Position numbers and translations under genes: made by a program
Notes under the pieces: generated by a model
The model's database searches: none
Seen by the model: the letters and a program-made list of their open reading frames with translations, nothing else
Told to the model about the DNA's origin: nothing
Part shown: positions 7,534-41,949 of the stretch, piece after piece
How the letters are laid out: each line of letters opens with the position of its first letter
Numbering within the stretch: the first letter of the stretch is position 1
Source of the DNA: an uncultured Jannaschia sp.
Lineage (GTDB): Bacteria; Pseudomonadota; Alphaproteobacteria; Rhodobacterales; Rhodobacteraceae
Assembly (NCBI GenBank): GCA_937916365.1
Contig: CALFSY010000249.1
Span: 1 to 43,997, forward strand
DNA: 43,997 nt
Direction: 5' to 3'

Positions 7534-7998
7534 TTATTCTGGGTTGCGGCGCCAGATTGAAATATTCAGCGCCGCAGCCAAAGTGACCCAAATAAGATAT
7601 GGCACAAACAAAAGTCCCGCGATTGTGTCGAGTTGGAAAAAGCTAACCATTGTGCCGCACACCGCGGCCCAAAGCCCCCCCATAACGCCCAATGCCGCCC
7701 GTATTCGATGTAGGCCGAAAAAAACTGGGCTCCACAGTGTGTTAAATGCAATCTGCATTCCCCAAAAGGCCATGGCATAGGCGTTGTTGTCTAGGTTGGC
7801 CACCCGCGCGGCAGCGACCGCCGCAGATATGTAAAGAAACGTCCACACAACCGGAAAGACCCCGTTGGGCGGCGTCCATGCCGGTTTTGAAAGTGCGCGA
7901 TACCACGACCCCGGCGCAAACCCTGCACCTGTCGCCGCCGCAGCCCCACACGCCAACAGAAAAATTACAAATACACCCCAATCCATGGCCCGTGCCAT
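7534..7998 (-). CDS. tspO: Tryptophan-rich sensory protein TspO (CrtK)
   Basis: 154 aa. The N-terminus M(ARA)MDWGVFVIFLLACGAAAATG…WY…LSKPAWTPP…VFPVVWTFLY…AFNTLWSPVFFG…VPYLIWVTLAAALN is collinear with Rhodobacter TspO. The start is 7998 or 7986. Confidence 0.9.
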   Translation of the reverse strand: MARAMDWGVFVIFLLACGAAAATGAGFAPGSWYRALSKPAWTPPNGVFPVVWTFLYISAAVAAARVANLDNNAYAMAFWGMQIAFNTLWSPVFFGLHRIRAALGVMGGLWAAVCGTMVSFFQLDTIAGLLFVPYLIWVTLAAALNISIWRRNPE

Positions 7999-8050
7999 AC
8001 CACAGTAGAATGGCCAAGGTCCATTCAGATCCGAAAGGTTATTTTGAAAG

Positions 8051-8094
8051 TGTATATTTAAGTTGACATTCTATAGTGTCAGGATAGGCTTACA
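8051..8094. promoter_or_regulatory. Tandem PpsR/CrtJ-type operators (TGT-N12-ACA, 8-bp spacer, TGT-N12-ACA) overlapping a sigma70-like -35 box of the bchC promoter
   Basis: The first palindrome is TGTatatttaagttgACA at 8051-8068. The second is TGTcaggataggcttACA at 8077-8094. They are separated by 8 bp (ttctatag). A TTGACA box at 8063-8068 lies inside palindrome 1. A possible -10 TAGGCT at 8085-8090 (16-nt spacer) lies inside palindrome 2. The element sits in the tspO/bchC divergent intergenic region. Confidence 0.7.
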
Positions 8095-8171
8095 TTTACA
8101 TGCGCATACATTGGCCAAAGATTCTTGACCAACCCTGACCCGCGCAATGATGATGACGAGGAAAACACAAG

Positions 8172-9113
8172 GTGCATTCAACCGCTGTAATCTTTGAAGG
8201 TGCCCAAAAACTCACCCTTGGTGCGGTGGGTCTTTCGGTGCCTAAAACACACGATGTGGTGGTGGATGTGCGGTATTCGGGCATTTCAACCGGCACCGAA
8301 AAACTGTTTTGGGCCGGGCGTATGCCACCGTTTCCTGGCATGGGCTATCCATTGATCCCCGGGTATGAGGCGATGGGCGAGGTTGTGGAGGTCGGCGCCG
8401 AATCTGGATTTTCGGTCGGCGACACAGTATTTGTGCCTGGTGCAGATTGTTATCGCGATGTGCGGGGATTGTTCGGGGCGGCGTCCCAGCGGATGGTTGT
8501 GCCCGGTGATCGAATCATTGCCATTGATCCCACGTTGGGGGCCGAAGGCGCGCTTTTGGCGTTGGCGGCCACAGCGCACCATGGGTTAACGGCCCCGCAC
8601 GCACGATTGCCCGATTTGATCGTCGGTCATGGCGTTTTAGGGCGGCTATTGGCGCGCTTAACGTTGATCATGGGCGGATCACCCCCCACTGTTTGGGACA
8701 TTGATGCCCAAAGACAGGGCGGTGCCGAAGGTTATCGTGTCATTCACCCCGATGACGATGTGCGCCGCGATTATCAATGCATTTATGATGCGTCCGGTGA
8801 TGCGGCGGTGCTTGACCAACTTATCGCGCGCCTGGGTAAGGGGGGCGAGGTCGTTTTGGCGGGCTTTTATTCGGCCCCAGTGCAATTTGCCTTTCCGCCC
8901 GCGTTCATGCGCGAAGCGCGGCTGCGCATCGCCGCCGAATGGACGCAAGACGATCTGACCGCCACGCGCGATTTGGTCGGCGACGGTGTGTTAAACCTTT
9001 CAGGTCTTATCACCCACAGCGCCCCGGCGCATCGGGCCGAACAGGCATATCACACAGCATTCGAAAATCCCGCCTGTCTAAAGATGATTTTAGAGTGGGA
9101 GGGCATTGCATGA
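8172..9113 (+). CDS. bchC: Bacteriochlorophyllide a dehydrogenase BchC (2-desacetyl-2-hydroxyethyl bacteriochlorophyllide a dehydrogenase)
   Basis: 313 aa with a GTG start preceded by gagga. It is a zinc-ADH-like protein with the BchC-type N-terminus ([17 protein letters not shown]…[30 protein letters not shown]). It sits upstream of bchXYZ. Confidence 0.93.
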
Positions 9114-10114
9114 GCCTTGATACACCCCCGAACTTAAAAGGGTATGACCAAACCCTACGGCAAGAGGCGGCGGCGCCCACATTAGAGGTGCCGCAAGCCG
9201 AGCCCACAAAAAAAACCCAGATCATCGCGATCTATGGCAAGGGTGGTATCGGTAAATCCTTCACCCTTGCAAACCTAAGCCATATGATGGCCGAACAGGG
9301 CAAGCGTGTCTTGTTAATTGGGTGCGATCCGAAATCAGACACAACATCGTTGCTTTTCGGGGGGCGTGCCTGCCCCACAATCATCGAAACCTCAACGGCT
9401 AAAAAATTAGCCGGTGAAGAGGTTAAGATCGGGGATGTGTGTTTCAAACGCGGTGGTGTGTTTGCCATGGAACTTGGCGGCCCCGAGGTTGGGCGCGGGT
9501 GCGGCGGGCGCGGGATCATCCATGGTTTTGAATTGTTGGAAAAACTGGGCTTTCACGATTGGGATTTCGATTACGTTTTGCTCGATTTTCTCGGTGATGT
9601 GGTGTGTGGCGGGTTTGGTTTGCCCATTGCGCGGGATATGGCGCAAAAGGTTATTGTTGTAGCATCCAATGACCTACAATCGCTTTATGTGGCCAACAAT
9701 GTTTGTTCGGCGGTCCAGTATTTCCGCAAACTTGGCGGTAACGTCGGCGTCGCAGGGATGGTCATTAACAAAGATGACGGCGGCGGGCAGGCCCAGGCCT
9801 TTGCCCAATCTGTTGACATTCCGGTGTTGGCCGCCATTCCCGCAGATGAAGATTTGCGCCGTAAATCAGCAGGCTATGAAATTGTGGGCACCAATGCGAC
9901 ACGTTGGGGCGCGTTATTTTCGGATTTGGCGGACAATGTGTCCAAAGCGCCGCCTACGCATCCTGCCCCCTTAACGCAAGATGGGCTTTTGGCGTTATTC
10001 GACGGCAAAGATACCGGCGCCGATTTTGTGTTGGATCCCGCGACTGAGGCCGACATGCGCGGGGCAAACGCGGCCTTAAAACCATCCCTAGAAGTTATTT
10101 ATGATACGGTATAG
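9110..10114 (+). CDS. bchX: Chlorophyllide a reductase iron protein subunit BchX
   Basis: It is a NifH/BchL-like ATPase with the P-loop [13 protein letters not shown] and CGGFG cluster ligands. ATG 9110 overlaps the bchC stop (ATGA). The upstream part of ORF 8939-10114 lies inside bchC and is not coding. Confidence 0.95.
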
Positions 10115-10117
10115 CAC

Positions 10118-11698
10118 ATGACCGAACCGTTGGCGGGCATAAAACACGATAGCGTCCAAAACACAGATGATACTGTAAATAACGCCCCGCGCGTCGCGAA
10201 CGGGTTACATATGGCATCCGATGGGCAAGGCGGATGTCATGCGGGGGCTGCGGCAATGGACCATGCCGCACGGCAGGCCGGTAAATCCGACATTCTTGAC
10301 CAATACGCCCGCGATTATCCGCAAGGGCCCCACGATAAACCGCAATCTATGTGCCCGGCCTTTGGATCGTTGCGCGTGGGGCTGCGCATGCGGCGCGTGG
10401 CCACAGTTTTGTCTGGTTCCGCGTGCTGTGTGTATGGGCTGAGCTTTGTCAGCCATTTTTACGGCGCGCGACGGTCTGTGGGGTATGTGCCGTTCGATTC
10501 TGAAACGTTGGTTACCGGTAAACTGTTCGAAGACATCCGCGATGCCGTTCACAATATGGCCGATCCTGATCGGTATGACGCGATTGTTGTCACAAATCTG
10601 TGCGTGCCCACCGCATCGGGCGTGCCTTTGCGTTTGTTGCCCAAATCTATTGATGGTGTGCGCGTCATCGGCATTGATGTGCCAGGTTTCGGTGTGCCCA
10701 CCCATGCCGAGGCCAAGGATGTCTTGGCCGGTGCCATGCTTGATTTCGCCCAGCAGGAGGTGCGGGCAGGCCCCGTGCAAGCGCCTGTTACGGGCCGTTC
10801 AGACCGTCCAACAGTAACACTGTTGGGCGAAATGTTCCCTGCGGATCCAATCGGGATCGGAGGGATGCTCGCGCCGCTCGGTCTGGCGGCAGGTCCGGTC
10901 GTTCCCTGCCGTGAGTGGCGCGAGCTTTACGCAGCTTTGGATAGTGATGTGATCGCGGCGATACATCCGTTTTATACCGCAGCCATTCGTGTGTTTGAAA
11001 CCGCAGGGCGTACAATCGTGGGGTCCGCCCCCGTTGGCCATGATGGGGCCGCCGAATGGTTGCGCGCCATTGCGGCGGCCTATGGTGTTTCCAATGCCCG
11101 GGTGGGGCAGGCGCACAATGCGTGCCTGCCCGCCATTACCGCCGCGTTGGCGGCCCATCCCATAAAAGGCACAATCACCCTTTCCGGGTATGAAGGATCA
11201 GAGCTTTTGGTGGCGCGTCTTTTGATCGAAAGCGGGGCACAGGTGCCTTATGTTGGCACCGCTTGTGCAAAAACGCCGTGGTCCACACCCGATCTTGATT
11301 GGCTAACGGCGCGCGGGGTTAAGGTGCAATTCCGCGCTGCGTTAGAGGATGATTTTGCCGCATTAGCAGCCATCAAACCCGATTTGGCCATTGGCACCAC
11401 GCCTGTTGTGCAAAAGGCCAAGCAAATGGGTGTTCCGGCCCTTTATTTTACAAACCTTATTTCGGCCCGCCCCTTGATGGGTGTGGCGGGCGCCGGCGCG
11501 TTGGGGCAAATCATCAATGCTGCCATGGCCAACAAAGATCGCATGGACCGCATGAAAACATTTTTCGCCGATGTGGGTGATGGCGACACAGCGGGCATAT
11601 GGGAAGGCGCTCCAAACATGCGCCCCGATTTTCGCGCGCAGCACCAAAAAAAGCTGGATAAACAAGCCCGTGCCACCAAAGCACAGGAGATGCTGTGA
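10118..11698 (+). CDS. bchY: Chlorophyllide a reductase subunit BchY
   Basis: 526 aa, NifD/BchN-like, in the conserved bchX-Y-Z order. The motif …[30 protein letters not shown]… is typical of BchY. Confidence 0.95.
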
Positions 11699-13179
11699 TG
11701 TTGATCCAAGACCATGATCGCGCCGGGGGCTATTGGGGGGCTGTTTACGCATTTACGGCAATCAAGGGGTTGCAAGTTATCATTGATGGGCCGGTGGGAT
11801 GCGAAAATCTGCCCGTCACATCAGTGTTGCATTACACCGATGCACTCCCCCCGCATGAATTGCCCATCGTGGTGACCGGCCTAGGCGAAGAAGAGCTGGG
11901 CCGTGATGGAACCGAGGGCGCAATGAAACGGGCGTGGGGCACGCTTGACCCCGCATTGCCCAGTGTTGTGGTCACCGGCTCAATCGCAGAAATGATCGGC
12001 GGGGGCGTCACCCCGCAAGGCACATCAATTCAGCGATTTCTGCCCCGCACCATTGATGAGGATCAGTGGCAAAGCGCTGATCGTGCCATGACATGGATTT
12101 TCACCGAGTTTGGGATGACCAAAGGCCGAATGCCGCCCGAACGCAAACGCGCGCCCGATGATGCGCCGCGCGTCAATATCTTAGGGCCGATGTATGGCAC
12201 ATTTAACATGCCATCGGATTTGGCGGAAATTCGGCGCCTGGTCGAAGGCATAGGGTGTGATGTCAATATGGTGATGCCCCTGGGCGCCCATGTGGCCGAT
12301 ATGCGCAATCTTGTGAACGCGGATGTCAACATTTGTATGTATCGTGAATTTGGCCGTGGTTTGGCCGAGGTGTTGGGCAAACCCTACCTACAGGCCCCCA
12401 TCGGCATGGACAGCACAACGAAATTCCTGCGCACCTTGGGGGATTTAACGGGCCTAGACCCCGAACCCTTTATCGCACGTGAAAAACATTCCACCCTCAA
12501 ACCTGTGTGGGATTTGTGGCGTTCCGTCACACAGGATTTTTTCGCCACGGCGAATTTCGGAATTGTCGCCAATGAAACCTATGCGCGTGGGGTGCGGCAT
12601 TTCCTGGAAACCGACCTGGGTTTTCCCTGTGCCTTTGCCGTGAGCCGATGCGCCGGTCAAAAAACCGATAATGATAAGGTGCGCACCCTTATCGAAGACA
12701 CCAAACCATTGGTGGTCATGGGATCCATCAACGAAAAAATGTATTTGGCCGATATGGTAGGCGGGCATGGGCCAAAGCCTGCGTTCATCCCCGCCAGTTT
12801 CCCTGGCGCTGCAATCCGGCGCGCGTTGGGAACACCCTTCATGGGGTATGCAGGCGCCACGTATATCTTGCAAGAGGTGTGCAATGGCCTGTTTGATGCT
12901 TTGTTTCACGTTTTGCCGCGCGCGGCGGATATGGACAGTGCCCAAGCAACACCCACAACGCTGCGCCGGGATTTCCCGTGGGACCCCGAGGCGCAAACCA
13001 TGTTGGACCGGATTGTGGCACAACACCCCGTTTTAACCCGTATTTCGGCGGCAAAAACCCTGCGCGATGCCGCCGAACAGGCCGCATTGAACGACGGGGC
13101 CGACAAGGTGCGCAAGGATAACGTCGCCGCACTTGCAGGATTTGACATCAACGACACCGAAGAGGGAGGATCAGAATGA
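11695..13179 (+). CDS. bchZ: Chlorophyllide a reductase subunit BchZ
   Basis: 494 aa. The N-terminus (M)[40 protein letters not shown] is BchZ-like. The start is GTG 11695 or ATG 11698 and overlaps the bchY TGA. Confidence 0.95.
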
Positions 13180-13397
13180 CGGATGTAACTGCCCATAATA
13201 CCCCCACCACACGTATCAGAACACCCAAAACAGAATTTATGATTTATTTTGGGATTATTTTCCTAGCCGCGTTGCCGCTTGCAACATTGTCTTGGGTATG
13301 GGCCGCGACCACATCGCGCCCCACCCACAGGCAAGGTCCAATCGCACGTGCATGGAGCCAGGCGCGCATCATTACACCGATGATTTTCGCAGCCTGA
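13176..13397 (+). CDS. pufQ: PufQ (bacteriochlorophyll biosynthesis/assembly factor)
   Basis: 73 aa with a single TM segment. The pattern [26 protein letters not shown]…[18 protein letters not shown] parallels Rhodobacter PufQ (…PEFALYFSLILIVAVPFALVGWV…GPFARAW…ITPEIF). Its ATG overlaps the bchZ TGA, and it lies directly upstream of pufBA. Confidence 0.85.
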
Positions 13398-13615
13398 ACC
13401 GCGATTTTTCCACCCGCAACACCCGCACAATCGGCGGATGGGGGAAAGATCGCGCATAAAATACCCTCGGCGCGACGACCGGAGCCGAGACTGAAGTTTC
13501 CCGCATCAGGGCCATTTGGCATTTGGCGTGGGGAAAGGCCGGCAGGGCAATGAGGTTCTGTCGGGGCCCCGCCGCGGGGTGCGCGGCATCAGTCGAAACG
13601 TTCCGGAGGAAAGTA

Positions 13616-13765
13616 ATGGCTGACGATTCCGAGCTGTCCTTCACGGGTCTTACCGACGAACAGGCGCAGGAACTGCACGAGGTGTATATGGCTGGGCTTT
13701 ACCTGTTCGCGATTGTCGCGCTGGTTGCCCATATCGCCACGTATATCTGGGCGCCCTGGTTTTAG
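13616..13765 (+). CDS. pufB: Light-harvesting 1 (B870) beta polypeptide
   Basis: The 49-aa product is [50 protein letters not shown] ggagga SD lies 6-11 nt upstream. The BChl-ligand His sits in AHIATY. The ORF-track start at 13523 is an in-frame upstream extension. Confidence 0.93.
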
Positions 13766-13782
13766 GAAAGGATCCCAAGACA

Positions 13783-13947
13783 ATGGCTAAATTCTATAAG
13801 ATCTGGCTCATCTTTGACCCACGTCGCGTGTTTGTGGCGCAGGGTGTGTTCTTGTTCCTGCTGGCGGCGATGATCCACCTGGTGGTGTTGTCCTCGGGCA
13901 TGAACTGGTTTGAATCCGCCGCAATGACCATGGGTTTTGGTAACTAA
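13783..13947 (+). CDS. pufA: Light-harvesting 1 (B870) alpha polypeptide (not in the supplied ORF track)
   Basis: Hand translation gives [54 protein letters not shown], with a TAA stop at 13945-13947. It is near-identical in pattern to Rhodobacter PufA ([28 protein letters not shown]…IH). An SD aggaaagga lies upstream. Confidence 0.93.
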
Positions 13948-13979
13948 CCATCATCCACTGTTTATGCGGAGACCGACAA

Positions 13980-14013
13980 GGTTGCGGGCGGTGCGCCTGT
14001 ATCGCCCGCAACC
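13980..14013 (+). promoter_or_regulatory. pufA-pufL intercistronic stem-loop (candidate mRNA decay barrier or partial terminator)
   Basis: A perfect 11-bp stem pairs GGTTGCGGGCG (13980-13990) with CGCCCGCAACC (14003-14013) around a 12-nt loop. It lies 33 nt after the pufA stop. The position is the same as the hairpins that stabilise the pufBA segment in Rhodobacter. Confidence 0.6.
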
Positions 14014-14079
14014 AACACTAAAAATGATACGGACGGCTGACCTAAACGGAACCAAGCCGCCTAACGCGGAGACAGACGC

Positions 14080-14979
14080 ATGGCTTTGCTAAGTTTCGAA
14101 AAAAAATATCGCGTCCGCGGTGGGACGTTGATTGGCGGTGATCTGTTCGATTTTTGGGTGGGCCCGTTTTACGTGGGTTTTTTCGGGGTCACGACCGCCT
14201 TTTTTGCCTTATTAGGAACAATCTTGATTTTTTGGGGCGCGGCCATGCAGGGCACGTTCAACCCTTGGATCATCAACATCGCCCCGCCCGACCTAAGCTA
14301 TGGTTTGGGTCTTGCCCCGTTGATGGAGGGCGGGTTGTGGCAAATCATCACCATTTGCGCGATCGGGGCGTTCGTATCCTGGGCCCTGCGCGAAGTGGAA
14401 ATTTGCCGCAAACTGGGCATGGGGTATCATGTGCCGTTTGCGTTTAGTTTTGCGATTTTGGCCTATGTGACATTAGTGGTATTTCGCCCGTTATTGATGG
14501 GGGCATGGGGACATGGGTTTCCCTATGGTATTTTTAGCCACCTTGATTGGGTGTCAAACGTGGGGTATTCTTACCTACACTTCCACTATAACCCTGCACA
14601 CATGATCGCGGTGACGTTCTTTTTCACCACGACCCTGGCGTTGGCGTTGCATGGTGGATTGATCCTATCGGCGGCCAACCCCGAAAAGGGGGAAGAGGCC
14701 AAAACCCCCGATCACGAAGACACGTTTTTCCGCGATTTCATTGGGTATTCGATCGGCACTTTAGGCATTCATCGCCTGGGTTTATTGCTGGCGTTGAATG
14801 CCGGATTTTGGAGCGCGGTGTGCATCATCATCTCTGGCCCGGTTTGGACGGCCGGTTGGCCGGAATGGTGGAATTGGTGGCTAACCCTGCCGATTTGGCC
14901 GGACCAAGGGGTTATTTATGACAGCACGGGGTTGACCACGTATGGCACCAACGCGCCCATATTAATTGGGGGGGAATAA
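14080..14979 (+). CDS. pufL: Photosynthetic reaction centre L subunit
   Basis: 299 aa. [37 protein letters not shown]… is collinear with Rhodobacter PufL, and the ligand histidines are present (…HYNPAHM…, …GIHRLG…). It has about 17 extra C-terminal residues compared with the 281-aa R. sphaeroides L. Confidence 0.96.
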
Positions 14980-14984
14980 GACCG

Positions 14985-15986
14985 ATGGCTTATTTAGAAT
15001 ATCAAAACATCTTTACCCAAGTCCAAGTGCAAGGCGCGCCCGAAATGGGTATGGACAACGAAAACAACATGGCCGCCGAGCGCACAACATCGGCGCGGTT
15101 TTCAACGTTGCTGGGCTGGATCGGCAATGCGCAGATCGGCCCGATTTACCTAGGCTGGGCGGGTATTGTTGGATTGGCGACGGGGCTTTTGTGGTTCAAC
15201 ATCGTTGGCTTTAACATGTTGTCACAGGTCGGATGATCGATCCCAGAATTCATTCGACAGTTATTCTGGCTGGCGTTGGAACCACCCGGGCCAGAATGGG
15301 GCCTGTCGTTTCCGCCGTTAGACGAAGGCGGGTGGTATATTATCGCCAGTTTTTTCTTGTTGATTTCGGTGATGTCATGGTGGCTTCGGACATATCTTTT
15401 GGCTGAACAGCACAAAATGGGCAAACACATCGCCTGGGCATTTTTGGCCGCGATTTGGCTTTTTTTGGTGCTGGGGTTGTTTCGCCCGATCTTGATGGGA
15501 AGCTGGTCTGAGGCTGTGCCTTACGGTATTTTCCCGCATTTGGATTGGACGACCGCCTTTTCAATCCGGTATGGCAATCTGTATTATAATCCGTTCCATT
15601 GTCTTTCTATTGTCTTTCTATATGGGTCTGTTTTGCTATTTGCCATGCACGGGGCGACAATTCTAGCGGTGTCGCGGTATGGCGGGGATCGCGAATTAGA
15701 ACAGATCTATGATCGCGGCACGGCATCGGAACGTGCGGCACTGTTTTGGCGCTGGACGATGGGTTTTAATGCCACAATGGAAGGGATCCACCGTTGGGCC
15801 TGGTGGTTTGCGGTTTTAACACCCATTACCGGCGGAATCGGCATTTTGCTAACCGGAACGGTGGTCGATAACTGGTTCATCTGGGCCGTCGAACATAACT
15901 TCGCGCCCGAATACCTTGAACCCTATGGCTATGAAGCCCATGGCGGATACGAGGCATTCGGCGGGCTTACCCCGGAAGGAGAATAA
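14985..15986 (+). pseudogene. pufM: Reaction centre M subunit gene with a single in-frame TGA at 15234-15236 (otherwise intact, 333 codons)
   Basis: ORFs 14985-15236 and 15276-15986 are in the same frame. The 13 codons between them ([13 protein letters not shown]) continue PufM. The full product is MAYLEYQNIFTQVQVQGAPEMG…[32 protein letters not shown]…[20 protein letters not shown]…VVDNWFIW…. The confidence value refers to gene identity; true pseudogene status is uncertain (see findings). Confidence 0.85.
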
Positions 15987-15989
15987 ACC

Positions 15990-17132
15990 ATGTTGCCCAA
16001 ATGGTTTAATGATTGGAACAGGAAAAACCCCACCAATGTTTTTGGGCCTGCCATTGCGGTGGCCGCTGTGGGCGGGGCGGTTTTCGTTGCCGTGATGATT
16101 ATCGCCTGGGGTCAACCTTATGCGACGGAATCTATGCAAACCGGCCCACGTGGAACGGGCATGCATGTGGCAGAATTCGCGGCCGATTTGGACAGTGGGG
16201 ATCCCACGATCCTTGATTATTACCAAGATGAACCTTTTATCCCGGAAGATGGGGAACCACTGGCCGGTGACGTATATGAAAATGTCCAGGTTTTGGGGAA
16301 TCTAACCGAGGCGAATTTTACCCGCTTGATGAACGCAATCACGCTATGGGTGGCCCCAGATCAGGGGTGCACTTATTGTCATGCGGGGGCGAATGACGGC
16401 AATTATGCCGATGACGACCTTTATACCAAGGTTGTGGCGCGCTCGATGATCCAGATGACGCAAAACATCAATCAAAACTGGGCCGCCCACGTGCAAGCCA
16501 ACGCCGAGGTGGGGGTGACGTGTTATACCTGTCATCGCGGACAAAACGTGCCAAACAACATTTGGTTCCAGGTGGGGCCGGTCAACGCGGCCACCAATGG
16601 GTGGCCTGCAATCCAAAATCGGGCAACGATGGTATCGAATTTCACGTCGTTACCATCCGATTATTTGGAACATTATCTGCTACAGGCCGAAGATGGCACA
16701 TACCCGCAAATTGCGGTGCATGATTTGGCATCCCGTGTGCAGCAAAACCCGGGCGATCCATTGATCCAACAGGCCGAACGCACCTATGCGTTTATGAACT
16801 ATATTGCGAATTCATTGGGGGTGAATTGTGTGTTTTGCCATAATTCCCGCGCGTTTTACGATGCTGCACAGGTTACGCCACAATGGGCCACTGCGTCGCT
16901 CGGAATTGTGATGGTGCAGGAAATCATCGCCGATTACCTGCTGCCCTTGCAAAATGTGTATCCGCCTGAACGGTTGGGGCCGATCCATGGCGATGCGCCC
17001 TTGGCGGCATGTCGGACCTGTCATCAGGGGTATCAACGCCCGATGCAGGGGTTGAACGTGATTCGCAATTATCCGGAATTGGCGGTTGTGGACGGTGCGC
17101 CGGATTATTCGGTTTTTGAAACGGCAGAATAG
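15990..17132 (+). CDS. pufC: Reaction-centre-bound tetrahaem cytochrome c subunit
   Basis: 380 aa with four CXXCH motifs (CTYCH, CYTCH, CVFCH, CRTCH). An N-terminal hydrophobic segment (VFGPAIAVAAVGGAVFVAVMIIAW) has no Cys or lipobox. The gene immediately follows pufM. Confidence 0.95.
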   Translation: MLPKWFNDWNRKNPTNVFGPAIAVAAVGGAVFVAVMIIAWGQPYATESMQTGPRGTGMHVAEFAADLDSGDPTILDYYQDEPFIPEDGEPLAGDVYENVQVLGNLTEANFTRLMNAITLWVAPDQGCTYCHAGANDGNYADDDLYTKVVARSMIQMTQNINQNWAAHVQANAEVGVTCYTCHRGQNVPNNIWFQVGPVNAATNGWPAIQNRATMVSNFTSLPSDYLEHYLLQAEDGTYPQIAVHDLASRVQQNPGDPLIQQAERTYAFMNYIANSLGVNCVFCHNSRAFYDAAQVTPQWATASLGIVMVQEIIADYLLPLQNVYPPERLGPIHGDAPLAACRTCHQGYQRPMQGLNVIRNYPELAVVDGAPDYSVFETAE

Positions 17133-17181
17133 GGAACGGGTGGGCGTGCATCCATCCTCTCATGTTTTCGCAAAGATAGGC

Positions 17182-17228
17182 GCGCGTGCGGTGTGATTGT
17201 TGTTACGGATTGCGTGCGCTGTCTTTTC
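17182..17228 (+). terminator. Weak candidate puf operon terminator
   Basis: GCGCGTGC (17182-17189) can pair with GCGTGCGC (17212-17219). That gives 8 bp including 2 central G-U pairs and a 22-nt loop, followed by tgtcttttc. The structure is imperfect. Confidence 0.3.
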
Positions 17229-19999: not shown

Positions 20000-20222
20000 C
20001 CTGCATTTTTGGAATGACTTTGCTTAAAGTAAATCTAGTATTAACTACACCCTAAAACCCATACAAATGGTGTCTATATGTCAAAAAATTGCCTGTATCA
20101 TTGTTTGAACAAGATCACTTGTACTACGCAATATACCATATAATTAACCGCGAAAACGCCTTAGTTTAGTCAAATTTACTCTTTACACCTCTAACCACAA
20201 CTAAATCTACCCGAGGCTAGAC

Positions 20223-22045: not shown

Positions 22046-22063
22046 TGTCACGTGTCATGGACA
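22046..22063. promoter_or_regulatory. Single PpsR/CrtJ-type palindrome TGT-N12-ACA in the hemE/hemC divergent region
   Basis: TGTcacgtgtcatggACA lies at 22046-22063 and ends 17 nt before the hemC ATG. A single copy of a 6-base motif could arise by chance. Confidence 0.4.
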
Positions 22064-25902: not shown

Positions 25903-26955
25903 TTATCCCCTCATCCGTGCGCCGGTTTCGGGGTGAAAGAACAGCACGTGCGCCGGATCGACGTGCAGGCCAACGCGGGTTTTGGGGGGCGGGGTGGCTT
26001 GATCATGGGCCTCAACACTTAGGCGGGTGGTATCGGGGGCGGTCAGGTAATGGTAACTCACCCCGCCCAGGTGTTCGGATAAATCAACGATATGCGTGGT
26101 GCCCTCAACGATCGTCATGTGATTGGGGCGCAGGCCGATTGTGACCGCCCCATCAGGGATTGCCGGCGCGGGCAGCATCACATTGCCAAGCGCGGGCACA
26201 CGCACTTGCCCGCCTGTGACTGTGCCGTCCAGGAAATTCATCGCCGGACTGCCGATAAACCCAGCCACAAACCGATTGTCAGGGTCGTTATAAAGATCCA
26301 ACGGGCGACCCACCTGGGCAATCCGCCCCGCATTTAGCACAACGATTTTATCGGCCAGCGTCATCGCCTCGGTCTGGTCATGGGTGACATAGATCATTGT
26401 GGCGCCGATTTCTTTGTGCAATCGCGCGATTTCCACCCGCATACCAACCCGCAGCTCGGCATCCAGGTTTGATAACGGTTCGTCGAACAAAAATACCTCT
26501 GGCCCGCGCACGATGGCCCGCCCGATGGCCACGCGCTGTCGCTGTCCGCCGGACAGGGCCTTGGGTTTGCGATTAAGATAGTCGTCGAGTTTTAGGATAT
26601 GCGCGGCCTGGGTGACCTTTTCGTCGATCGCGGCCTTGTTGTGCCCCGTCATCCGCAGGCCAAAGCCCATGTTTTGCGCCACCGTCATATGCGGATAAAG
26701 TGCGTAGGATTGAAACACCATGGCAACCCCACGATCAGAGGGATCAAGATGCGTCACATCGCGGGTGCCGATGGAAATTTTGCCCTGGGTCGTTTGCTCC
26801 AACCCCGCGACCATGCGCAACAACGTGGATTTGCCGCACCCCGATGGGCCGACGAACACGCAAAATTCGCCGTCGTCGATGTGCAAATCAATGCCATGGA
26901 TGACCTGGGTTGCCCCGTATCGTTTGACCACCTGATCAAGGTGCACGCCTGACAT
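25903..26955 (-). CDS. Sugar ABC transporter ATP-binding protein (MalK/UgpC type)
   Basis: Walker A (GPSGCGKST), the [14 protein letters not shown] signature and Walker B ([10 protein letters not shown]) are present, along with a C-terminal MalK-like regulatory domain. ATG 26955 is preceded by aagga. GTG 26970 is an alternative start. Confidence 0.9.
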
Positions 26956-27111
26956 GGCCGTTCCTTTCACGTTTGCCGTTTTACGGTATACTGCATCAAT
27001 ACCGTGACTTTCCCTTCGTGTTGGGTGTTGACAAGCCTATGCAGACCCTTGCAACGATTTCAATATCAGAAAACGAAGGTTCCGCTTATGGAACCGGTTA
27101 GGGAGGATACA

Positions 27112-28374
27112 ATGAATTTCATTTCCAAAACCGGCGCGGCGGCGTTGGTGGCGGCCCTGGTCCCCATGGGCCCGGCGCTGGCCGATGGTCACGATGCGCT
27201 GACCGGCACGTTGCGCATATTCTCGGACATGTCGAACCCTGCCCCCCGCGCGATTATGGAGGGGTTGGCGGCCGAGTTTGACGCAATGCACCCCGATTTA
27301 ACGGTCGAGCTGCAAGTGGTGGATCGTGAGGCCTGGAAAACTCAGATCCGCAACGTTTTATCGGCCGATCCACCCGATGTGGTCAACTGGTATGCCGCCA
27401 ACCGCATGGGCCCGTATGTGAACGCAGGGCTGTTTATGGACATCACCGAATGGTGGGATGCGGGCGATTTTGAGGGCCTTGAATCCGTGCGCGGCGCGAT
27501 GACTATGAACGATGCCGTGTGGGGCGTGCCCTATACCTATTACCAATGGGGCATCTATTACCGTGAGGATATTTTCAACGACCTGGGCCTAAGCGAACCC
27601 GAAACGTTTGAGGAAGAGATTGCAAATTGTCAGGTTATCGTTGATTCGGGCCGCGCCTGTTATGCCATTGGATCGCGGTTTTTGTGGACAGCAGGCGGAT
27701 GGTTTGATTACCTGAACATGCGCACCAACGGGTTCGAGTTTCACATGGCGCTCGCGCGCGGTGAAATCCCGTGGACCGATGATCGTGTGCGTGACACATT
27801 TGCCAACTGGCAACGCCTGATCGACATGGGCGCCTTTATCGAAGATCACCAAACCTATAGCTGGCAAGAGGCATTGCCGTTTGTCGTGAATGGGCAGGCC
27901 ACGGCCTATCTGATCGGTAATTTCGCGGTGCCGCACCTGCGCGATGCGGGGTTAACCGACGATCAGCTTGATTTTTATCAATTCCCCATCATCACCGCTG
28001 GTTTGCCCCAGGGCGAAGATGCGCCAACAGATACGTTCCACGTGGCCAGCGGCGCACAAAATGTCGAGGCCGCGCGCGCGTTCCTACAATTCGTCACCTC
28101 GGCCGAGGTGCAGGGCCGCATCAACGGGCCCGATGGGTTGGGGCAGTTGCCGATCAACGCAAATGCGTCTGTCGCCGATGATGAGTTTATCCAGCAAGGG
28201 TTTGAAATGCTGTCAACCAACGCCCAGGGCGGCATTGCACAGTTTTTCGACCGTGACTTTCCCGCCGAAATGGCATCGGTCGGGATGGAAGGTTTGCAGG
28301 AGTTCATGGTGTTTCCCGAAAACCTGGACGATATTTTGGACCGGTTAGAGGCCGCGCGGCAGCGCATTTATTAA
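27112..28374 (+). CDS. ABC transporter extracellular sugar-binding protein
   Basis: It has a signal peptide (MNFISKTGAAALVAALVPMGPALA) and an SD gggagga. It is a family-1 SBP-like protein placed upstream of two permease genes. Confidence 0.85.
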   Translation: MNFISKTGAAALVAALVPMGPALADGHDALTGTLRIFSDMSNPAPRAIMEGLAAEFDAMHPDLTVELQVVDREAWKTQIRNVLSADPPDVVNWYAANRMGPYVNAGLFMDITEWWDAGDFEGLESVRGAMTMNDAVWGVPYTYYQWGIYYREDIFNDLGLSEPETFEEEIANCQVIVDSGRACYAIGSRFLWTAGGWFDYLNMRTNGFEFHMALARGEIPWTDDRVRDTFANWQRLIDMGAFIEDHQTYSWQEALPFVVNGQATAYLIGNFAVPHLRDAGLTDDQLDFYQFPIITAGLPQGEDAPTDTFHVASGAQNVEAARAFLQFVTSAEVQGRINGPDGLGQLPINANASVADDEFIQQGFEMLSTNAQGGIAQFFDRDFPAEMASVGMEGLQEFMVFPENLDDILDRLEAARQRIY

Positions 28375-28382
28375 GCACATCT

Positions 28383-28417
28383 CTACCCCGCGCCGTGGAC
28401 GTTGAGGTGCGGGGTAG
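28383..28417 (+). promoter_or_regulatory. Intercistronic hairpin after the binding-protein gene
   Basis: CTACCCCGC (28383-28391) pairs with GCGGGGTAG (28409-28417) as a 9-bp stem around a 17-nt loop. A weak T tract (atgtttt) follows downstream. Confidence 0.35.
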
Positions 28418-28488
28418 ACCTCAAATGTTTTCGCCACCAAGTGCCCAAAATATCGTAGGCACGTTCGCACAATAACAAAGGCCCGCCC

Positions 28489-29418
28489 ATGGCCACCACC
28501 GACACACCATTGGCTGTTGATCCACGCACAACCTGGTTTGCGCGCCACCGCATGGTGGTGACGCCACTGTTGTTTTTGGCGCCTGGTGTTTTGTTTTTTG
28601 CGGTCTACGTTATTGTGCCCATTTTCCAATCCATCGGGATTTCGTTTTACGAATGGGATGGGTTGGGCGATGCCACCTATGTGGGGTTGCGCAATTATCA
28701 GGAATTGGTGACGGACCGAAACTTTGAAATATCGCTTTGGAACAACCTAAAATGGCTGTTGCTGTATTTGCTGGCCATTCCGGCGGGGCTATTTATGGCG
28801 TTGTTCTTAAATCAAACGGTTATGGGCATTCGCCTGTATAAATCATTGTTTTTCTTTCCTTTTGTCCTTAGCCAAGTCGTGGTGGGGTTGGTGTTTTCGT
28901 GGTTTTATTTACCGCGTGAGGGGCTTTTGAACGGGGTGTTGGGGATGGTTGGTTTGGGCCCCGTTAATGTGTTGGGCGACCCGGCCCTGGCCACCTATGG
29001 CATTATTGTCGCCGGTCTCTGGCCGCAAACGGCCTATTGTATGATCCTTTATTTAACCGGGCTCAACGCTGTTGACCCCGAACAGATTGAGGCTGGGCGC
29101 CTTGACGGGGCAAAGGGGTGGAACATGTTGTGGCACGTGGTGTTGCCGCAACTGCGCCCTGCGACATTCATCGCCTTTGTGGTCACGATCATCGGCGCGC
29201 TGCGGTCGTTTGACCTGATCTCGATCATGACAAATGGCGGGCCGTTTGGATCCACCCGGGTGCTGAGCTTTTATATGTTTGAAAAAGCGCTAAGCGAATT
29301 TGGCTTTCGCATGGGCTATGGATCGGCCATTGCGGTGGTGTTGTTCTTGATCATGTTGGTTTTTATCGGATATTTCCTCTACGCCATGTGGCGCGATGAG
29401 GGGGAGGCGCGGCGATAA
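28489..29418 (+). CDS. Sugar ABC transporter permease (MalF/UgpA-like)
   Basis: 309 aa with 6 predicted TM segments and an EAA-like loop (…DPEQIEAGRLDGAKGWNMLWHVVLPQLRPA…). Confidence 0.88.
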   Translation: MATTDTPLAVDPRTTWFARHRMVVTPLLFLAPGVLFFAVYVIVPIFQSIGISFYEWDGLGDATYVGLRNYQELVTDRNFEISLWNNLKWLLLYLLAIPAGLFMALFLNQTVMGIRLYKSLFFFPFVLSQVVVGLVFSWFYLPREGLLNGVLGMVGLGPVNVLGDPALATYGIIVAGLWPQTAYCMILYLTGLNAVDPEQIEAGRLDGAKGWNMLWHVVLPQLRPATFIAFVVTIIGALRSFDLISIMTNGGPFGSTRVLSFYMFEKALSEFGFRMGYGSAIAVVLFLIMLVFIGYFLYAMWRDEGEARR

Positions 29419-29420
29419 CC

Positions 29421-29780
29421 ATGACCGATGATTCGTTTCGTGCCTCCATCAACGACATCTGTGCGGGCCTGCCAGGCGCCGAATGGTCCGACCCGTGGGG
29501 CGGGGGGCACGATGCGTGGAAGGTGGGCGGCAAAATGTTTGCCTGCATGGGCGCGGTGTATCCGGGCGTATCGGTCAAAACCCCCGATGTGGAAACCGCG
29601 GCAATGTTGATCGAGGCCGGCGTGGCCCGCAAAGCGCCCTATTTCCACCGGTCTTGGGTGAACCTGCCCGAAGATGTCACGGCAGAGGACCTGCGCCACC
29701 GTATTCTTACCTCATATGACATCATGCGCGCGAGCCTAACGAAAAAGGCGCAGGCGGCCCTGCCCCCGCGCAAGGATTAG
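29421..29780 (+). CDS. MmcQ/YjbR family (DUF419) protein
   Basis: 119 aa and soluble. The pattern …LPGAEWSDPWGGGHDAWKVGGKMFA…YFHRSWVNLP… matches the YjbR fold family. It is wedged between the two permease genes, with 2-nt and 4-nt spacers. Confidence 0.7.
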   Translation: MTDDSFRASINDICAGLPGAEWSDPWGGGHDAWKVGGKMFACMGAVYPGVSVKTPDVETAAMLIEAGVARKAPYFHRSWVNLPEDVTAEDLRHRILTSYDIMRASLTKKAQAALPPRKD

Positions 29781-29784
29781 GTCG

Positions 29785-30633
29785 ATGTTTCCCACCCCCA
29801 TCCAAAACCGCCCGCAAATGGCGCAGATCACCTATCAGGCGCTATTGCCCGTGGCGTTAATTTTGTGGTTGCTACCATTGATCGCGGTGATGTTGTTTTC
29901 CATCCGCCCGTTTACGGATTTCACCGCCGGCAATTATTGGGGCTTGCCATCGTCATTCGACATGGTCTCCAATTACGGGCGTGTCTTTTTTGACTCGGAC
30001 ATGCCGCGATACTTGTTAAACTCAGTGCTTATCACTGTGCCCACCGTATTCGGCGCCGTTGCGTTGTCATGTATGACGGGCTTTGCCCTGGGCCTTTATC
30101 GGTTTCGCGGCAACCTTTTGATTTTCTTTATGTTCATCGCGGGCAATTTTGTTCCCTTTCAAATCCTTATGGTGCCGGTGCGCGATTTGACGGTGGGCCT
30201 GGGGCTGTATGACACAAAACTGGGTCTGGTGTTGTTTCACACCGCCTTTCAAACCGGGTTTTGCACGCTATTCATGCGCAACTTTATCCGCGCCTTACCG
30301 TTTGAGTTGGTCGAGGCGGCGCGCGTTGAAGGTGTGGCCGAATGGCGCATTTTCTGGTTTATTGTTCTGCCGCTGATGCGTCCGGCGATTGCCGCGCTTT
30401 CGGTATTGATTTTTACCTTTATTTGGAACGATTATTTTTGGGCCGTGGTGCTAACCCAAGGCCCCGGTGCGCAGCCGGTGACGGCGGGCATCACCGCGTT
30501 TAATTCACAATTCGTGGCACAATACCATTTGATGAGCGCGGGGTCGATCGTTGCTGCGATCCCGCCTGTGGCGATCTTTTTCCTGCTGCAACGCCATTTC
30601 ATTGCTGGGCTGACATTGGGGGCTGTGAAATGA
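29785..30633 (+). CDS. Sugar ABC transporter permease (MalG/UgpE-like)
   Basis: 282 aa with 6 TM segments and an EAA loop (…ELVEAARVEGVAEWRIFWFIVLPLMRPA…). Confidence 0.88.
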   Translation: MFPTPIQNRPQMAQITYQALLPVALILWLLPLIAVMLFSIRPFTDFTAGNYWGLPSSFDMVSNYGRVFFDSDMPRYLLNSVLITVPTVFGAVALSCMTGFALGLYRFRGNLLIFFMFIAGNFVPFQILMVPVRDLTVGLGLYDTKLGLVLFHTAFQTGFCTLFMRNFIRALPFELVEAARVEGVAEWRIFWFIVLPLMRPAIAALSVLIFTFIWNDYFWAVVLTQGPGAQPVTAGITAFNSQFVAQYHLMSAGSIVAAIPPVAIFFLLQRHFIAGLTLGAVK

Positions 30634-31973
30634 CCATCAAACTGGCCTTTATTGGGGCGGGATCCACGATTTTTATGAAAAACATCGTGGGTGATATGTT
30701 GCATTTCCCCACATTGTCTGACGCCAACATCGCGTTGATGGATATTGACCCCAATCGTTTGGCCGATTCTGCGCTGGTGGCGCGCAAAATGATTGCCACC
30801 ATGGGCACCAACGCCACAGTCATGACAACGACCGACCGCGCGCGCGCTCTGGATGGTGCCGATTTTGTTATCGCGGCGTTTCAAATCGGTGGGTATCGCC
30901 CCGCCACGGTGATAGATTTTGACATTCCCAAAACCTATGGGTTGCGGCAAACAATCGGTGATACCCTAGGCGTGGGTGGCATTATGCGGGGGCTGCGCAC
31001 CGTGCCGCACCTGTGGGCGTTAGCCGGTGATATGGCGCGCCTATGCCCCGATGCGATGTTGTTGCAATATGTCAACCCGATGGCGATCAACACCTGGGCG
31101 TTGGCAGCGCGTTACCCTAACCTGCGTCATGTGGGCCTGTGCCATTCGGTGCAAAACACCGTGGCCGAGCTGGCCCATGATCTGGACCTGGCTGTGGGTG
31201 ACATCCGCCACCGTGTGGCGGGGATCAACCATGTGGCGTTTTTTTTGGACCTGTCGCATCAGGGCCAATCGCTCTATCCCCGTTTGCGGGCGGGGTATCG
31301 CGCGGGGCATTTGCCCAAAACCCCGTTGGAACGGCCCCATTGCCTTAACAAAGTGCGGTATGAGGTGATGGAACATCTGGGTTATTTTTGCACCGAAAGC
31401 TCGGAACATTTGGCCGAATATGTGCCGTGGTTCATCAAAGATGGGCGCGATGATTTGATCGCGGCCTTTGGCATCCCGCTTGATGAATACCCCGCGCGGT
31501 GTGCGGCACAGATGGCCGATTGGGCCACACAGGCCGCCGCGTTGCGCCACACCGGCACGGTTGAAGTTGCGCAATCGCACGAATTTGCGGCCGCAATCAT
31601 GAACGCCATGCTGACCAATGTGCCGATCACGATAACCGCGAACCTGCCCAACACTGGCCAAATCCCGCAGCTGCCCCCGGGGGCGGCGGTGGAAACCCCC
31701 ACGGTGGTCGATGCGAATGGGTGTCAGCCTACGGTTGTGGCGGACATTCCGCCACAGTTGATCGCGTTGATGCGCACGCAAATCAATGTGCAAGAGCTGG
31801 TGGTGCGCGCCCTGATGGATGAAAACGTCGATCACATTTACCATGCCGCGTATATGGATCCCCACACCGCCGCCGAACTTGATCTGCGCCAAATCCGCAG
31901 TTTGGTAAGCGATCTGTTGGTCGCCCATGGGGATTGGGTGCCACCTTGGGCACGGGGGCGGCGGGCGGCATGA
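30630..31973 (+). CDS. melA: GH4 NAD+/Mn2+-dependent alpha-galactosidase
   Basis: 447 aa, collinear with E. coli MelA. Shared segments include KLAFIGAGSTIFMKNIVGD…IALMDIDPNRL…AFQIGGY…YVNPMAINTW…VGLCHSVQ…GINHVAFF…TESSEHLAEYVPWFIK…VYHAAYMDPHTAA. Its ATG overlaps the permease TGA. Confidence 0.9.
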   Translation: MTIKLAFIGAGSTIFMKNIVGDMLHFPTLSDANIALMDIDPNRLADSALVARKMIATMGTNATVMTTTDRARALDGADFVIAAFQIGGYRPATVIDFDIPKTYGLRQTIGDTLGVGGIMRGLRTVPHLWALAGDMARLCPDAMLLQYVNPMAINTWALAARYPNLRHVGLCHSVQNTVAELAHDLDLAVGDIRHRVAGINHVAFFLDLSHQGQSLYPRLRAGYRAGHLPKTPLERPHCLNKVRYEVMEHLGYFCTESSEHLAEYVPWFIKDGRDDLIAAFGIPLDEYPARCAAQMADWATQAAALRHTGTVEVAQSHEFAAAIMNAMLTNVPITITANLPNTGQIPQLPPGAAVETPTVVDANGCQPTVVADIPPQLIALMRTQINVQELVVRALMDENVDHIYHAAYMDPHTAAELDLRQIRSLVSDLLVAHGDWVPPWARGRRAA

Positions 31974-32734
31974 TGGCAACTTTTCCCGATCTTGCGGGCC
32001 GGTCGGTGTTTATCACCGGTGGCGGGTCTGGCATTGGCGCCGCGTTGACCGAGGCATTTTTGCGCCAAGGGGCCAACGTGGCCTTTGCACAGCGGTCCGA
32101 GGCCGGTGCATTTGTTGATTCTATGGCCGATCAAACCGGCAATCGCCCGCTGTTTGTGCCCTGCGATATTACCGATATTCCTGCGTTAAAGGCCGCGCTG
32201 GCGACCGCCGCCGCGGCCCACGGCCCGATCACCGCGTTAATCAACAACGCCGCCAACGATCACCGCCACACCACCGAAGAAGTTAGCGAAGAATTTTGGG
32301 ATTGGGCGCAAGCGATCAACCTAAAGGCATACTTTTTCGCCTGTCAGGCCGTGATTGCGGGGATGCGCGCGGCAGGCGGCGGTGCGATTATCAATGTCTC
32401 GTCAATCGCCTACATCATGGGCAACGCGGGCTATCCCGCCTATACCACCGCCAATGGCGGCATCACGGCATTGACCCGCAGCTTGGCGCGCGAATTTGGC
32501 CCCGATAACATTCGCGTCAACGCGCTGTTGCCCGGGTGGGTGATGACGCAAAAACAACGCGATCTTTGGGCCACACCGCAGGCTTTGGCCGACCATCTGG
32601 ATCGGCAATGCCTAAAAACCCATCTTACGCCCCAGGATATAACCGGCGGTGCGTTGTTTTTGGCCTCAGACATCTCAACCATGATGACGGGCCAGGCGTT
32701 GGTGATCGACGGCGGTGTGGTGGTGACGGGATGA
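31970..32734 (+). CDS. SDR family oxidoreductase (candidate D-galactose 1-dehydrogenase of the De Ley-Doudoroff route)
   Basis: It carries TGGGSGIG, NNAA and the YxxxK-like context (YPAYTTANGG). It is translationally coupled to melA upstream and dgoK downstream. The substrate assignment rests on context only. Confidence 0.8.
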   Translation: MMATFPDLAGRSVFITGGGSGIGAALTEAFLRQGANVAFAQRSEAGAFVDSMADQTGNRPLFVPCDITDIPALKAALATAAAAHGPITALINNAANDHRHTTEEVSEEFWDWAQAINLKAYFFACQAVIAGMRAAGGGAIINVSSIAYIMGNAGYPAYTTANGGITALTRSLAREFGPDNIRVNALLPGWVMTQKQRDLWATPQALADHLDRQCLKTHLTPQDITGGALFLASDISTMMTGQALVIDGGVVVTG

Positions 32735-33651
32735 ACGCCAAAGGATTTGCTGATTGGGTCGCGGTGGATTGGGGCACCACGCATCTGCGGGCCTGGGCCA
32801 TGGCGCACGATGGCACGGTGCAGGCACAGGCCGGATCACAGGATGGCATGGGCCGATTGGCCCGGCATGAATTTGAACCTGCACTTTTGGCGCTAATCGA
32901 CGATTGGATCGGGCCGCGCCCAACGCCCGTTGTTGCGTGCGGCATGGTGGGCGCGCGGCAAGGGTGGGTTGAGGCCCCCTATACCCCCGTGCCTGTGGCG
33001 CCGCACACCTTGCGCCCCGTGCCGGTGCCCCATGTGGGCGACCCGCGGGTGCGATTGTGGATTGTGCCGGGGTTAAGCCAAACAAAACCGCCCGACGTCA
33101 TGCGCGGCGAAGAAACCCAAATTACCGGTTTTTTGGTGGCACAGCCCACGTTCGACGGGGTGTTGTGCCTGCCTGGCACACACACAAAATGGGTGCGGAT
33201 CAGCGCGGCCGAGGTGGTTAACTTTCAAACCTACATGACGGGTGAGGTGTTTGACCTTTTGGCCCATCAAAGCGTGCTGCGCCATGACGTGGCCAAAGAG
33301 GGCGCGATGGATCACTTGGTTTTTCAGGCGGCCGTGGATGACGCACTGTCGCGCCCCGAACGGATGGCGCAGAGGTTGTTCGCGCTGCGGGCAGGGGCGA
33401 TTTTGGATGGCACCACCCCTGCCGCCACCCGCGCGCGGCTGTCCGGCACATTGATCGGGGCCGAACTGTCTGCGGCCCGCCCCTATTGGTTGGGGCAGGA
33501 TGTTGTGGTGGCCGGGGCGCAAGGTTTGGCCCATCTTTATGCGCACGCTTTGCGGGGGCAGGGCGCCCAAACCCAAACCATCGCCGATGATGTGCTCACG
33601 CAAACTGGCCTTACACATTTTTATACGTCACAGATACAAGGCGTTTTTTGA
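32731..33651 (+). CDS. dgoK: 2-dehydro-3-deoxygalactonokinase
   Basis: The sequence MNAKGFADWVAVDWGTTHLRAWAM…MRGEETQI…LPGTHTKWV… is the DgoK pattern. Its ATG overlaps the SDR TGA. The ORF-track start at 32536 lies inside the SDR gene. Confidence 0.85.
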   Translation: MNAKGFADWVAVDWGTTHLRAWAMAHDGTVQAQAGSQDGMGRLARHEFEPALLALIDDWIGPRPTPVVACGMVGARQGWVEAPYTPVPVAPHTLRPVPVPHVGDPRVRLWIVPGLSQTKPPDVMRGEETQITGFLVAQPTFDGVLCLPGTHTKWVRISAAEVVNFQTYMTGEVFDLLAHQSVLRHDVAKEGAMDHLVFQAAVDDALSRPERMAQRLFALRAGAILDGTTPAATRARLSGTLIGAELSAARPYWLGQDVVVAGAQGLAHLYAHALRGQGAQTQTIADDVLTQTGLTHFYTSQIQGVF

Positions 33652-34273
33652 TATTACCCATCGCCCCCTGATTGCCATTTTGCGTGGCCTACCGCCCCAG
33701 GATGCCGCCGCCATTGGGGCCGCGTTGATTGCGGCCGGGATCACGCAGATCGAGGTGCCGTTGAACTCTCCCGATCCGTTCAAAAGTATTGAGGTTTTGA
33801 CCGCTCAATTCGGGGCGCAGGCGTTGATTGGGGCGGGCACGGTTTTAACAGTGGAGGACGTGCAGGCCGTCGCCGAATGTGGCGGGCGTTTGATTGTGTC
33901 GCCAAACATTGATCCGGCGGTTGTGGCAGAAACCAAGCGGCGGGGGCTGCACAGTATGCCGGGCGTTTTGACGCCGTCGGAATGTTTCGCGGCGGTGGGG
34001 GCCAGGGCCGATGGGTTGAAAATATTTCCGGCGCACCTGTTGGGGGTTGCGGGGTTAAAGGCCTTGCGTGCCGTGTTGCCCCCGGCGATGCGGGTGTTCA
34101 TGGTGGGCGGTGTTGGCCCCGAGACATTTGCCGAATGGCTGGCCGCGGGGGCCGATGGGTTTGGGATGGGCACCGCGTTGTATCACCCCGGGGCGGCGGC
34201 AGATGATGTGCGCTGCCGGGCACAGCGCATGGTTGCGGCCTATGACACCGCCGCCAAGGGCCCTATGGCATGA
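33590..34273 (+). CDS. dgoA: 2-dehydro-3-deoxy-6-phosphogalactonate aldolase (start uncertain)
   Basis: The sequence …PLIAILRGLPPQDAAAIGAALIAAGITQIEVPLNSPDPFKSIEVL…ALIGAGTVLTVEDV…LIVSPN…PGV.TPSE…LKIFPA… is collinear with E. coli DgoA. The only canonical starts (ATG 33587 and 33590) overlap dgoK by about 62-65 nt. Confidence 0.85.
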   Translation: MCSRKLALHIFIRHRYKAFFDITHRPLIAILRGLPPQDAAAIGAALIAAGITQIEVPLNSPDPFKSIEVLTAQFGAQALIGAGTVLTVEDVQAVAECGGRLIVSPNIDPAVVAETKRRGLHSMPGVLTPSECFAAVGARADGLKIFPAHLLGVAGLKALRAVLPPAMRVFMVGGVGPETFAEWLAAGADGFGMGTALYHPGAAADDVRCRAQRMVAAYDTAAKGPMA

Positions 34274-37055: not shown

Positions 37056-37192
37056 ATTATTTCCTAATCTTAGGGTGATTACAGCCTAAGATCACGAATC
37101 CCGCCGCAATATTGCCGGATGTAAAAAAAGCCCACGGCGTGCATCGGTGCGGTTATTGTGTTGTTTGAGGTGGCCCTCAAACCCACAAAGGC

Positions 37193-38011: not shown

Positions 38012-38022
38012 GGTGCATTCCT

Positions 38023-39333: not shown

Positions 39334-39334
39334 C

Positions 39335-40692: not shown

Positions 40693-40705
40693 GTTTTAAT
40701 TTGCC

Positions 40706-41911: not shown

Positions 41912-41949
41912 GCCCAAAATTTCACCACTTTAGCAATATTTTGGGATGC

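Follow-up and report, generated by a model that had tools for sequence, protein, structure and literature searches.

The photosynthesis island and its genes

The window, by which we mean the whole stretch of 43,997 nucleotides analysed here, encodes tspO, bchCXYZ and pufQBALMC in a 9.6-kb island (7534-17132) located between infB and pncA/trhO (Table 1). In this island, pufM is part of a contiguous row of plus-strand genes in the order pufQ, pufB, pufA, pufL, pufM and pufC. The photosynthesis cluster had been described in an earlier note on this DNA as intact apart from pufM. This holds for the genes of the bchCXYZ-pufQBALMC stretch, which are full length relative to their NCBIfam profiles, but not for a photosynthesis cluster as a whole, since the contig has only the tspO-bchCXYZ-puf module. 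There are no crtCDEF genes between tspO and bchC, and neither pncA nor trhO follows pufC in any of the 80 relatives that we compared (0/80). The photosynthesis cluster is split or rearranged in this species.

The products of the genes that flank pufM are well conserved in the same-species contigs described below, where PufC is identical and PufL has an exact match. The C-terminus of PufL is about 20 residues longer than in most members of its 90% cluster (274-290 aa), and the length of 299 aa is also found in the same-species contigs. One of these contigs (L081) aligns with the window without gaps through pufC, up to about position 17206.

The intergenic region between tspO and bchC contains two tandem TGT-N12-ACA palindromes (8051-8068 and 8077-8094). 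We take this motif to be of the PpsR/CrtJ type, which makes the two palindromes candidate repressor sites. More such sites occur at 20094-20111 and 22046-22063, one between hemE and hemC and one between a gene for a GT4 glycosyltransferase and an unannotated ORF at 20223. Altogether the motif was found 17 times in the window, when 8.8 occurrences were expected, and none of 100 shuffled sequences reached this count.

Table 1. Features of the photosynthesis island, with positions in the window.
Feature	Position	Strand	Remarks
tspO	7534-7998	-	Divergent from bchC
bchC	8172-9113	+	Full length relative to equivalog profile
bchX	9110-10114	+	Full length relative to equivalog profile
bchY	10118-11698	+	Full length relative to equivalog profile
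bchZ	11695-13179	+	Full length relative to equivalog profile
pufQ	13176-13397	+	Intact; NCBIfam profile, gene calls in L081 and L082
pufB	13616-13765	+	Intact; NCBIfam profile, gene calls in L081 and L082
pufA	13783-13947	+	Intact; NCBIfam profile, gene calls in L081 and L082
pufL	14080-14979	+	Intact, 299 aa; exact protein match in same-species contigs
pufM, reaction-centre M subunit (PF00124, Photo_RC)	14985-15986	+	333 codons and TAA, broken at codon 84
Coding part of the predicted cut-short product	14985-15233	+	83 residues: N-terminal segment and transmembrane helix A only
Premature opal stop TGA, codon 84 of pufM	15234-15236	+	Ancestral TGG (Trp); derived base A at 15236
Rest of pufM, codons 85-333, predicted to be untranslated	15237-15983	+	Helices B-E, His185, His205, His222, His269; perfectly conserved
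TTG ORF, 236 aa	15276-15986	+	No Shine-Dalgarno-like sequence upstream; ORF-calling artefact
pufC, tetrahaem cytochrome subunit	15990-17132	+	Intact; has a ribosome-binding site of its own (GGAGA), 4 nt downstream of the pufM stop

The reading frame of pufM is interrupted by a TGA

Codon 84 of pufM is an in-frame TGA, which can be read directly in the sequence (15231-15239 is GGA TGA TCG). When positions 14985-15989 are translated in one frame, they give 333 codons and a TAA terminator, with codon 84 as the sole internal stop. In the list of ORFs the gene is consequently cut in two, a piece of 83 aa (14985-15236) and a piece of 236 aa called from a TTG. The earlier note had given these coordinates and this start correctly, and was also right that the two pieces share a single frame and that PufM continues after the TGA: there is no frameshift in pufM, and the translation with the stop masked (333 aa) matches the M chains of solved reaction centres from end to end (E = 1.7e-195). 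The alignment with chain M of 9lts is ungapped over PufM residues 5-327. Since the match extends over the whole length of the protein, the two ORF pieces are one gene in one frame. The masked protein is 84-90% identical to its closest relatives, among which Rhodophyticola porphyridii is the closest named one (90%), and 70-83% identical to the remainder. The 13 codons directly downstream of the TGA agree exactly with those of most close relatives. The deposited pufM thus lacks the uninterrupted frame, with five transmembrane helices and ligand histidines, that characterises the gene, and it is a disrupted allele.

The downstream piece could in principle be expressed on its own. We checked 18 in-frame start codons after the TGA and found a Shine-Dalgarno-like sequence before none of them, and the TTG ORF is for this reason an artefact of gene calling. 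A public protein collection has a 189-aa call from an ATG at 15417 in its place, with NCBI and ENA as sources and no protein accession. We rejected re-initiation at the TTG or at the downstream ATGs on the same grounds (0/18 starts), and because the product would be devoid of helix A.

Codon 84 is TGG in the closest relatives and in the same species

Among 80 related loci, taken from genomes that represent their species, motif extraction allowed us to score the aligned codon in 53. The codon is TGG in 35 loci, TAC or TAT in 13, and TTC in 5, so that the position is occupied by Trp (35), Tyr (13) or Phe (5) and never by a stop (0/53). A comparison with the closest relatives, which the earlier note had proposed, gave TGG in all 12 of them, and its claim that the TGA lies at a conserved Trp or aromatic position, one transition away from TGG, is confirmed by both the relatives and the contigs of the same species.

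The species is rare in public data: we found only three further contigs, originating from two samples and belonging to other strains. They align to the window without gaps at 99.4-99.7% identity. Two of them span pufM and were recovered by an exact look-up of the PufL of the window. The first, L081 (ENA ERZ780647, 11.5 kb, with a coverage of about 3.5x according to the contig name), is 99.64% identical to positions 11080-17206 over 6.1 kb. The second, L082 (a 4.8-kb contig of the Logan assembly of SRR19658996), is 99.69% identical to positions 11875-16666 over 4.8 kb. The third, L164, covers positions 26255-41973 at 99.42% identity. In pufM itself the DNA is 99.1-99.3% identical to that of L081 and L082, again ungapped. 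Both contigs have a G at 15236 and therefore TGG at codon 84 (0/2 with a stop), and both encode an intact PufM of 333 aa, which in L082 is the same as the PufM of the window apart from Trp84. The presence of TGG in two same-species contigs and in the relatives implies that the TGA is derived by one G-to-A transition, and the outgroup states confirm this.

The TGA allele was found nowhere else. Neither the 83-aa N-terminal fragment nor the 236-aa TTG fragment gave a match in exact look-ups; a 24-nt pattern that allowed either purine (R) at the variable site had no match in JGI metagenome contigs, and a protein-guided scan of the same contigs found nothing closer than 89%. Internal stops in pufM are rare in general, with one case among the 161 other loci fetched, at a different codon. 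This case is an unrelated 2.6-kb metagenome contig (MDTD01052679.1) in which the match to pufM covers positions 80-994 and the stop takes the place of a Tyr aligned to residue 242. Literature searches for pufM with a premature stop codon returned no relevant paper, those for a pufM pseudogene no described case, and those for the sample accessions no mention in searchable papers.

The frame was under purifying selection at least until very recently

The three-way comparison between the window, L081 and L082 over bchY-bchZ-pufQBALMC revealed 27 variable sites, of which 22 are synonymous, 3 intergenic, 1 a Ser/Ala replacement and 1 the stop. Downstream of the TGA, the differences in pufM that are private to the window consist of 5 synonymous and no non-synonymous changes. 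Had pufM been a pseudogene for any length of time, most of the changes gathered in it should be non-synonymous. The pufM frame was therefore under purifying selection until very recently, unless this selection continues and the base is an error. The locus has one feature of nonsense pseudogenes, i.e., a stop that stands where orthologues have a sense codon and differs from it only at the third base, and shows no sign of relaxed selection downstream of the stop, which is the mark of older pseudogenes. Judging from these substitution patterns, the event that produced the TGA would be either very recent or not real.

Of the 10 differences that are private to the window in the three-way comparison over 4.8 kb, six lie within 574 bp of pufM (15236-15809), from the TGA on. 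The other five of these six are synonymous and, when polarised with outgroups, are a mixture of ancestral and derived states. The cluster may be a small recombination tract or may have arisen by chance.

TGA functions as a terminator in the window

That the UGA lies at a position of Trp, as in organisms using code 4, would fit a genome-wide reassignment to this amino acid. Yet TGA ends 19 of the 43 genes delimited in the window, including infB, bchC, bchY, bchZ and pufQ, and the lengths of these genes fit the NCBIfam profiles from end to end. Moreover, codon 84 of pufM is the sole in-frame TGA in the 44 kb. We thus rejected the reassignment of UGA to Trp, in agreement with the earlier note. 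Selenocysteine was rejected too, because we found neither a SECIS-like hairpin nor an Rfam match and because the orthologues never have Cys or Sec at this position. Recoding in either of these two forms is so improbable that we give it practically no weight. We also rejected A-to-I editing of the mRNA (UGA to UGI). The A is placed here within GAUCG; the known bacterial editing sites of this kind require a tRNA-Arg-like UACG loop.

A more specific alternative is that the UGA is real and is decoded efficiently as Trp, because the tRNA-Trp is unusual, a suppressor is present or the context is leaky, in a way that yields enough M for phototrophy and is perhaps regulated. Read-through would insert the ancestral residue and produce the exact wild-type protein. 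UGA is the leakiest of the stops, tRNA-Trp(CCA) reads it at rates of 1e-3 to 1e-2 in E. coli and Salmonella (PMC4989110), and variants of tRNA-Trp with a 4-bp anticodon stem, found in diverse bacteria, have raised UGA read-through (PMC13092985). The sequence context does not point in this direction. The base following the premature stop is a T, as it is at six genuine TGA terminators of the window (including those of infB and bchY). The predicted fold of the 67 nt from 15234 to 15300 is no better than that of shuffled sequences (z = -0.64), and Rfam gave no match downstream of the TGA at E-values up to 10 and none in the whole window at gathering thresholds. Efficient decoding would also extend the 19 genes of the window that end at TGA. 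Programmed read-through is unsupported because the stop is kept in none of the 53 relatives and in neither of the two same-species sequences. The window contains no tRNA genes and no prfB. We therefore regard decoding at a useful rate, for instance by a tRNA-Trp(CCA) with a 4-bp stem and with a reaction centre that is reduced or depends on conditions, as very unlikely. If it did occur, it would be a natural leaky stop that tunes phototrophy in an aerobic anoxygenic phototroph. The earlier note had offered three explanations for the TGA, among which a recent mutation and a sequence error survive; the third, low-level read-through by tRNA-Trp, is something that UGA codons show in general and does not count as an explanation of its own.

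A genuine allele or an error in the consensus

Two readings must then be weighed, a nonsense allele carried by the strain and a wrong base in the contig of an organism that has TGG at codon 84. For an error in base calling or in the consensus, a single substitution suffices. The 249 codons downstream are flawless and the protein is identical to a same-species copy, as one would expect of an intact gene. Both same-species sequences have a G at this site. The window is an entire contig of a draft or metagenome-type assembly that was deposited without annotation, and the same-species contigs, which come from such assemblies, have a coverage of only about 3.3-3.5x according to their names. The purifying selection on pufM in the species is very strong, so that the survival of a null allele is less probable from the outset, and only two same-species pufM sequences are available for comparison, neither of which has the TGA.

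The quality of the rest of the contig speaks against an error. There are no other frameshifts or internal stops in its approximately 43 genes, which argues against a noisy assembly, and there are no indels relative to 21.8 kb of same-species sequence. The differences are rich in transitions (79/91 relative to L164, 19/22 to L081 and 15/15 to L082) and mostly synonymous (62 synonymous and 23 non-synonymous relative to L164), with no excess of GC-to-AT changes of the kind that DNA damage leaves. Judging by this spectrum, they look like natural polymorphism and not like noise. To enter a short-read consensus, a substitution must be repeated as the same error in several reads, and a random substitution gives a stop in only about 4-5% of cases; we counted both points against an error. 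The indirect evidence hence favours a clean assembly. We consider an error possible but less likely, and we infer with moderate confidence that the base is real and that the strain carries a genuine, very recent nonsense allele of pufM.

The comparison with L164 revealed a second gene of interest, dgoA (33653-34273). It has ATT at the start where L164 has ATG, and the nearest in-frame alternative is an ATG at 33500, inside dgoK. There are 4 non-synonymous and 4 synonymous differences in its 621 nt, and the replacements include G118R, R188C and L204P. The first of these affects a conserved glycine, also present in DgoA of E. coli, that lies five residues before the lysine of the LKIFP motif, presumably the catalytic Schiff-base lysine of the DgoA aldolase family. 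Together with the lost ATG, these replacements form a second set of changes that are probably damaging, and decay in this lineage may thus extend to dgoA as well. Real decay in the lineage explains such clustered changes more easily than random errors in base calling.

A gene on the minus strand for an amino-acid ABC permease has three substitutions relative to L164 within 7 nt (38427-38433), resulting in L301I, M302I and L303M. One event that hit several nucleotides, a micro-recombination or a local error in one of the two contigs might explain this triple change in adjacent codons.

Expected consequences for the reaction centre

The hydrophobic segments of PufM span approximately residues 51-79, 112-134, 153-171, 209-227 and 276-302, and the histidines of the motifs FPHLDW, NPFHCLS, FAMHGAT and EGIHRW are residues 185, 205, 222 and 269. 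We take these to be the equivalents of M182, M202, M219 and M266 of Rhodobacter sphaeroides, which bind the iron as well as the accessory and special-pair bacteriochlorophylls. Four of the five hydrophobic helices and all cofactor-binding histidines are therefore encoded downstream of codon 84.

Under the nonsense allele that we favour, a G-to-A transition at 15236 would have turned the Trp codon TGG into an opal stop very recently, and release factor 2 would end translation after 83 residues according to the standard bacterial code. The product would have helix A only, and would miss helices B-E together with the histidines for the special-pair and accessory bacteriochlorophylls and for the non-haem iron. 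From the established biochemistry of reaction centres, no L-M-H(-C) complex should assemble from such a product, so that no reaction centre is expected beyond what trace read-through of the UGA would provide. Near-cognate decoding by tRNA-Trp would yield at most about 0.1-1% of full-length M if the rates of E. coli and Salmonella apply. Polarity of the Rho type may also lower the expression of pufC. The strain would then live as a heterotroph whose bacteriochlorophyll-based phototrophy has only just disappeared, or nearly so, unless a second puf operon is encoded elsewhere in the genome. Two such operons, pufLMX and pufLMC, occur in some Roseobacter genomes (PMC12661815).

Comparison with known systems

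Whether the TGA in pufM is a nonsense point mutation or one wrong base, events of this kind are ordinary and do not amount to a new mechanism of coding or regulation. The TGA shares with the codes that read UGA as Trp (tables 4 and 25) and with selenocysteine that it stands in frame where the protein requires a residue. It differs from them because TGA is a regular terminator of genes in the window, and because SECIS elements and orthologues with Cys or Sec were not found. With the near-cognate read-through of UGA by tRNA-Trp(CCA) in bacteria it has in common the codon and the amino acid that would be inserted (PMC4989110, PMC13092985), and this process sets an upper limit on the residual amount of M. 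There is here no conserved stop and no stimulatory context, and nothing indicates a level above the background. In either reading, the locus adds nothing to what is known of the genetic code or of the biology of reaction centres. If the base is an error, it illustrates that internal stops in draft and metagenome contigs need checks at the level of the reads.

Close analogues are the pseudogenes that one nonsense mutation creates in individual strains (termed "internal stop" in the annotation of bacterial genomes), in which one base creates a stop while the rest of the gene and the orthologues of the same species are intact. Older pseudogenes show relaxed selection, as opposed to the absence of non-synonymous changes, next to five synonymous ones, downstream of the stop in pufM. 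If the base is real, it also calls for caution when surveys take the presence of pufM as a sign of phototrophy.

Phototrophy is patchy in the Rhodobacteraceae and the Roseobacter group, with losses and horizontal transfers of the photosynthesis gene cluster (PMC6052148). If real, the TGA would mark the beginning of such a loss in a lineage of aerobic anoxygenic phototrophs, and a small but concrete data point on the origin of this patchy distribution. The losses described in that study are absences of the whole cluster that were deduced from the phylogeny, whereas here a point mutation affects one structural gene, and bchCXYZ, pufQBAL, pufC and the candidate repressor sites are intact. A marine phototroph of the Roseobacter type would thus have been caught at the moment of losing light harvesting, with the gene for M put out of action by one base and the genes for pigments, antenna and cytochrome, as well as the candidate repressor sites, left untouched.
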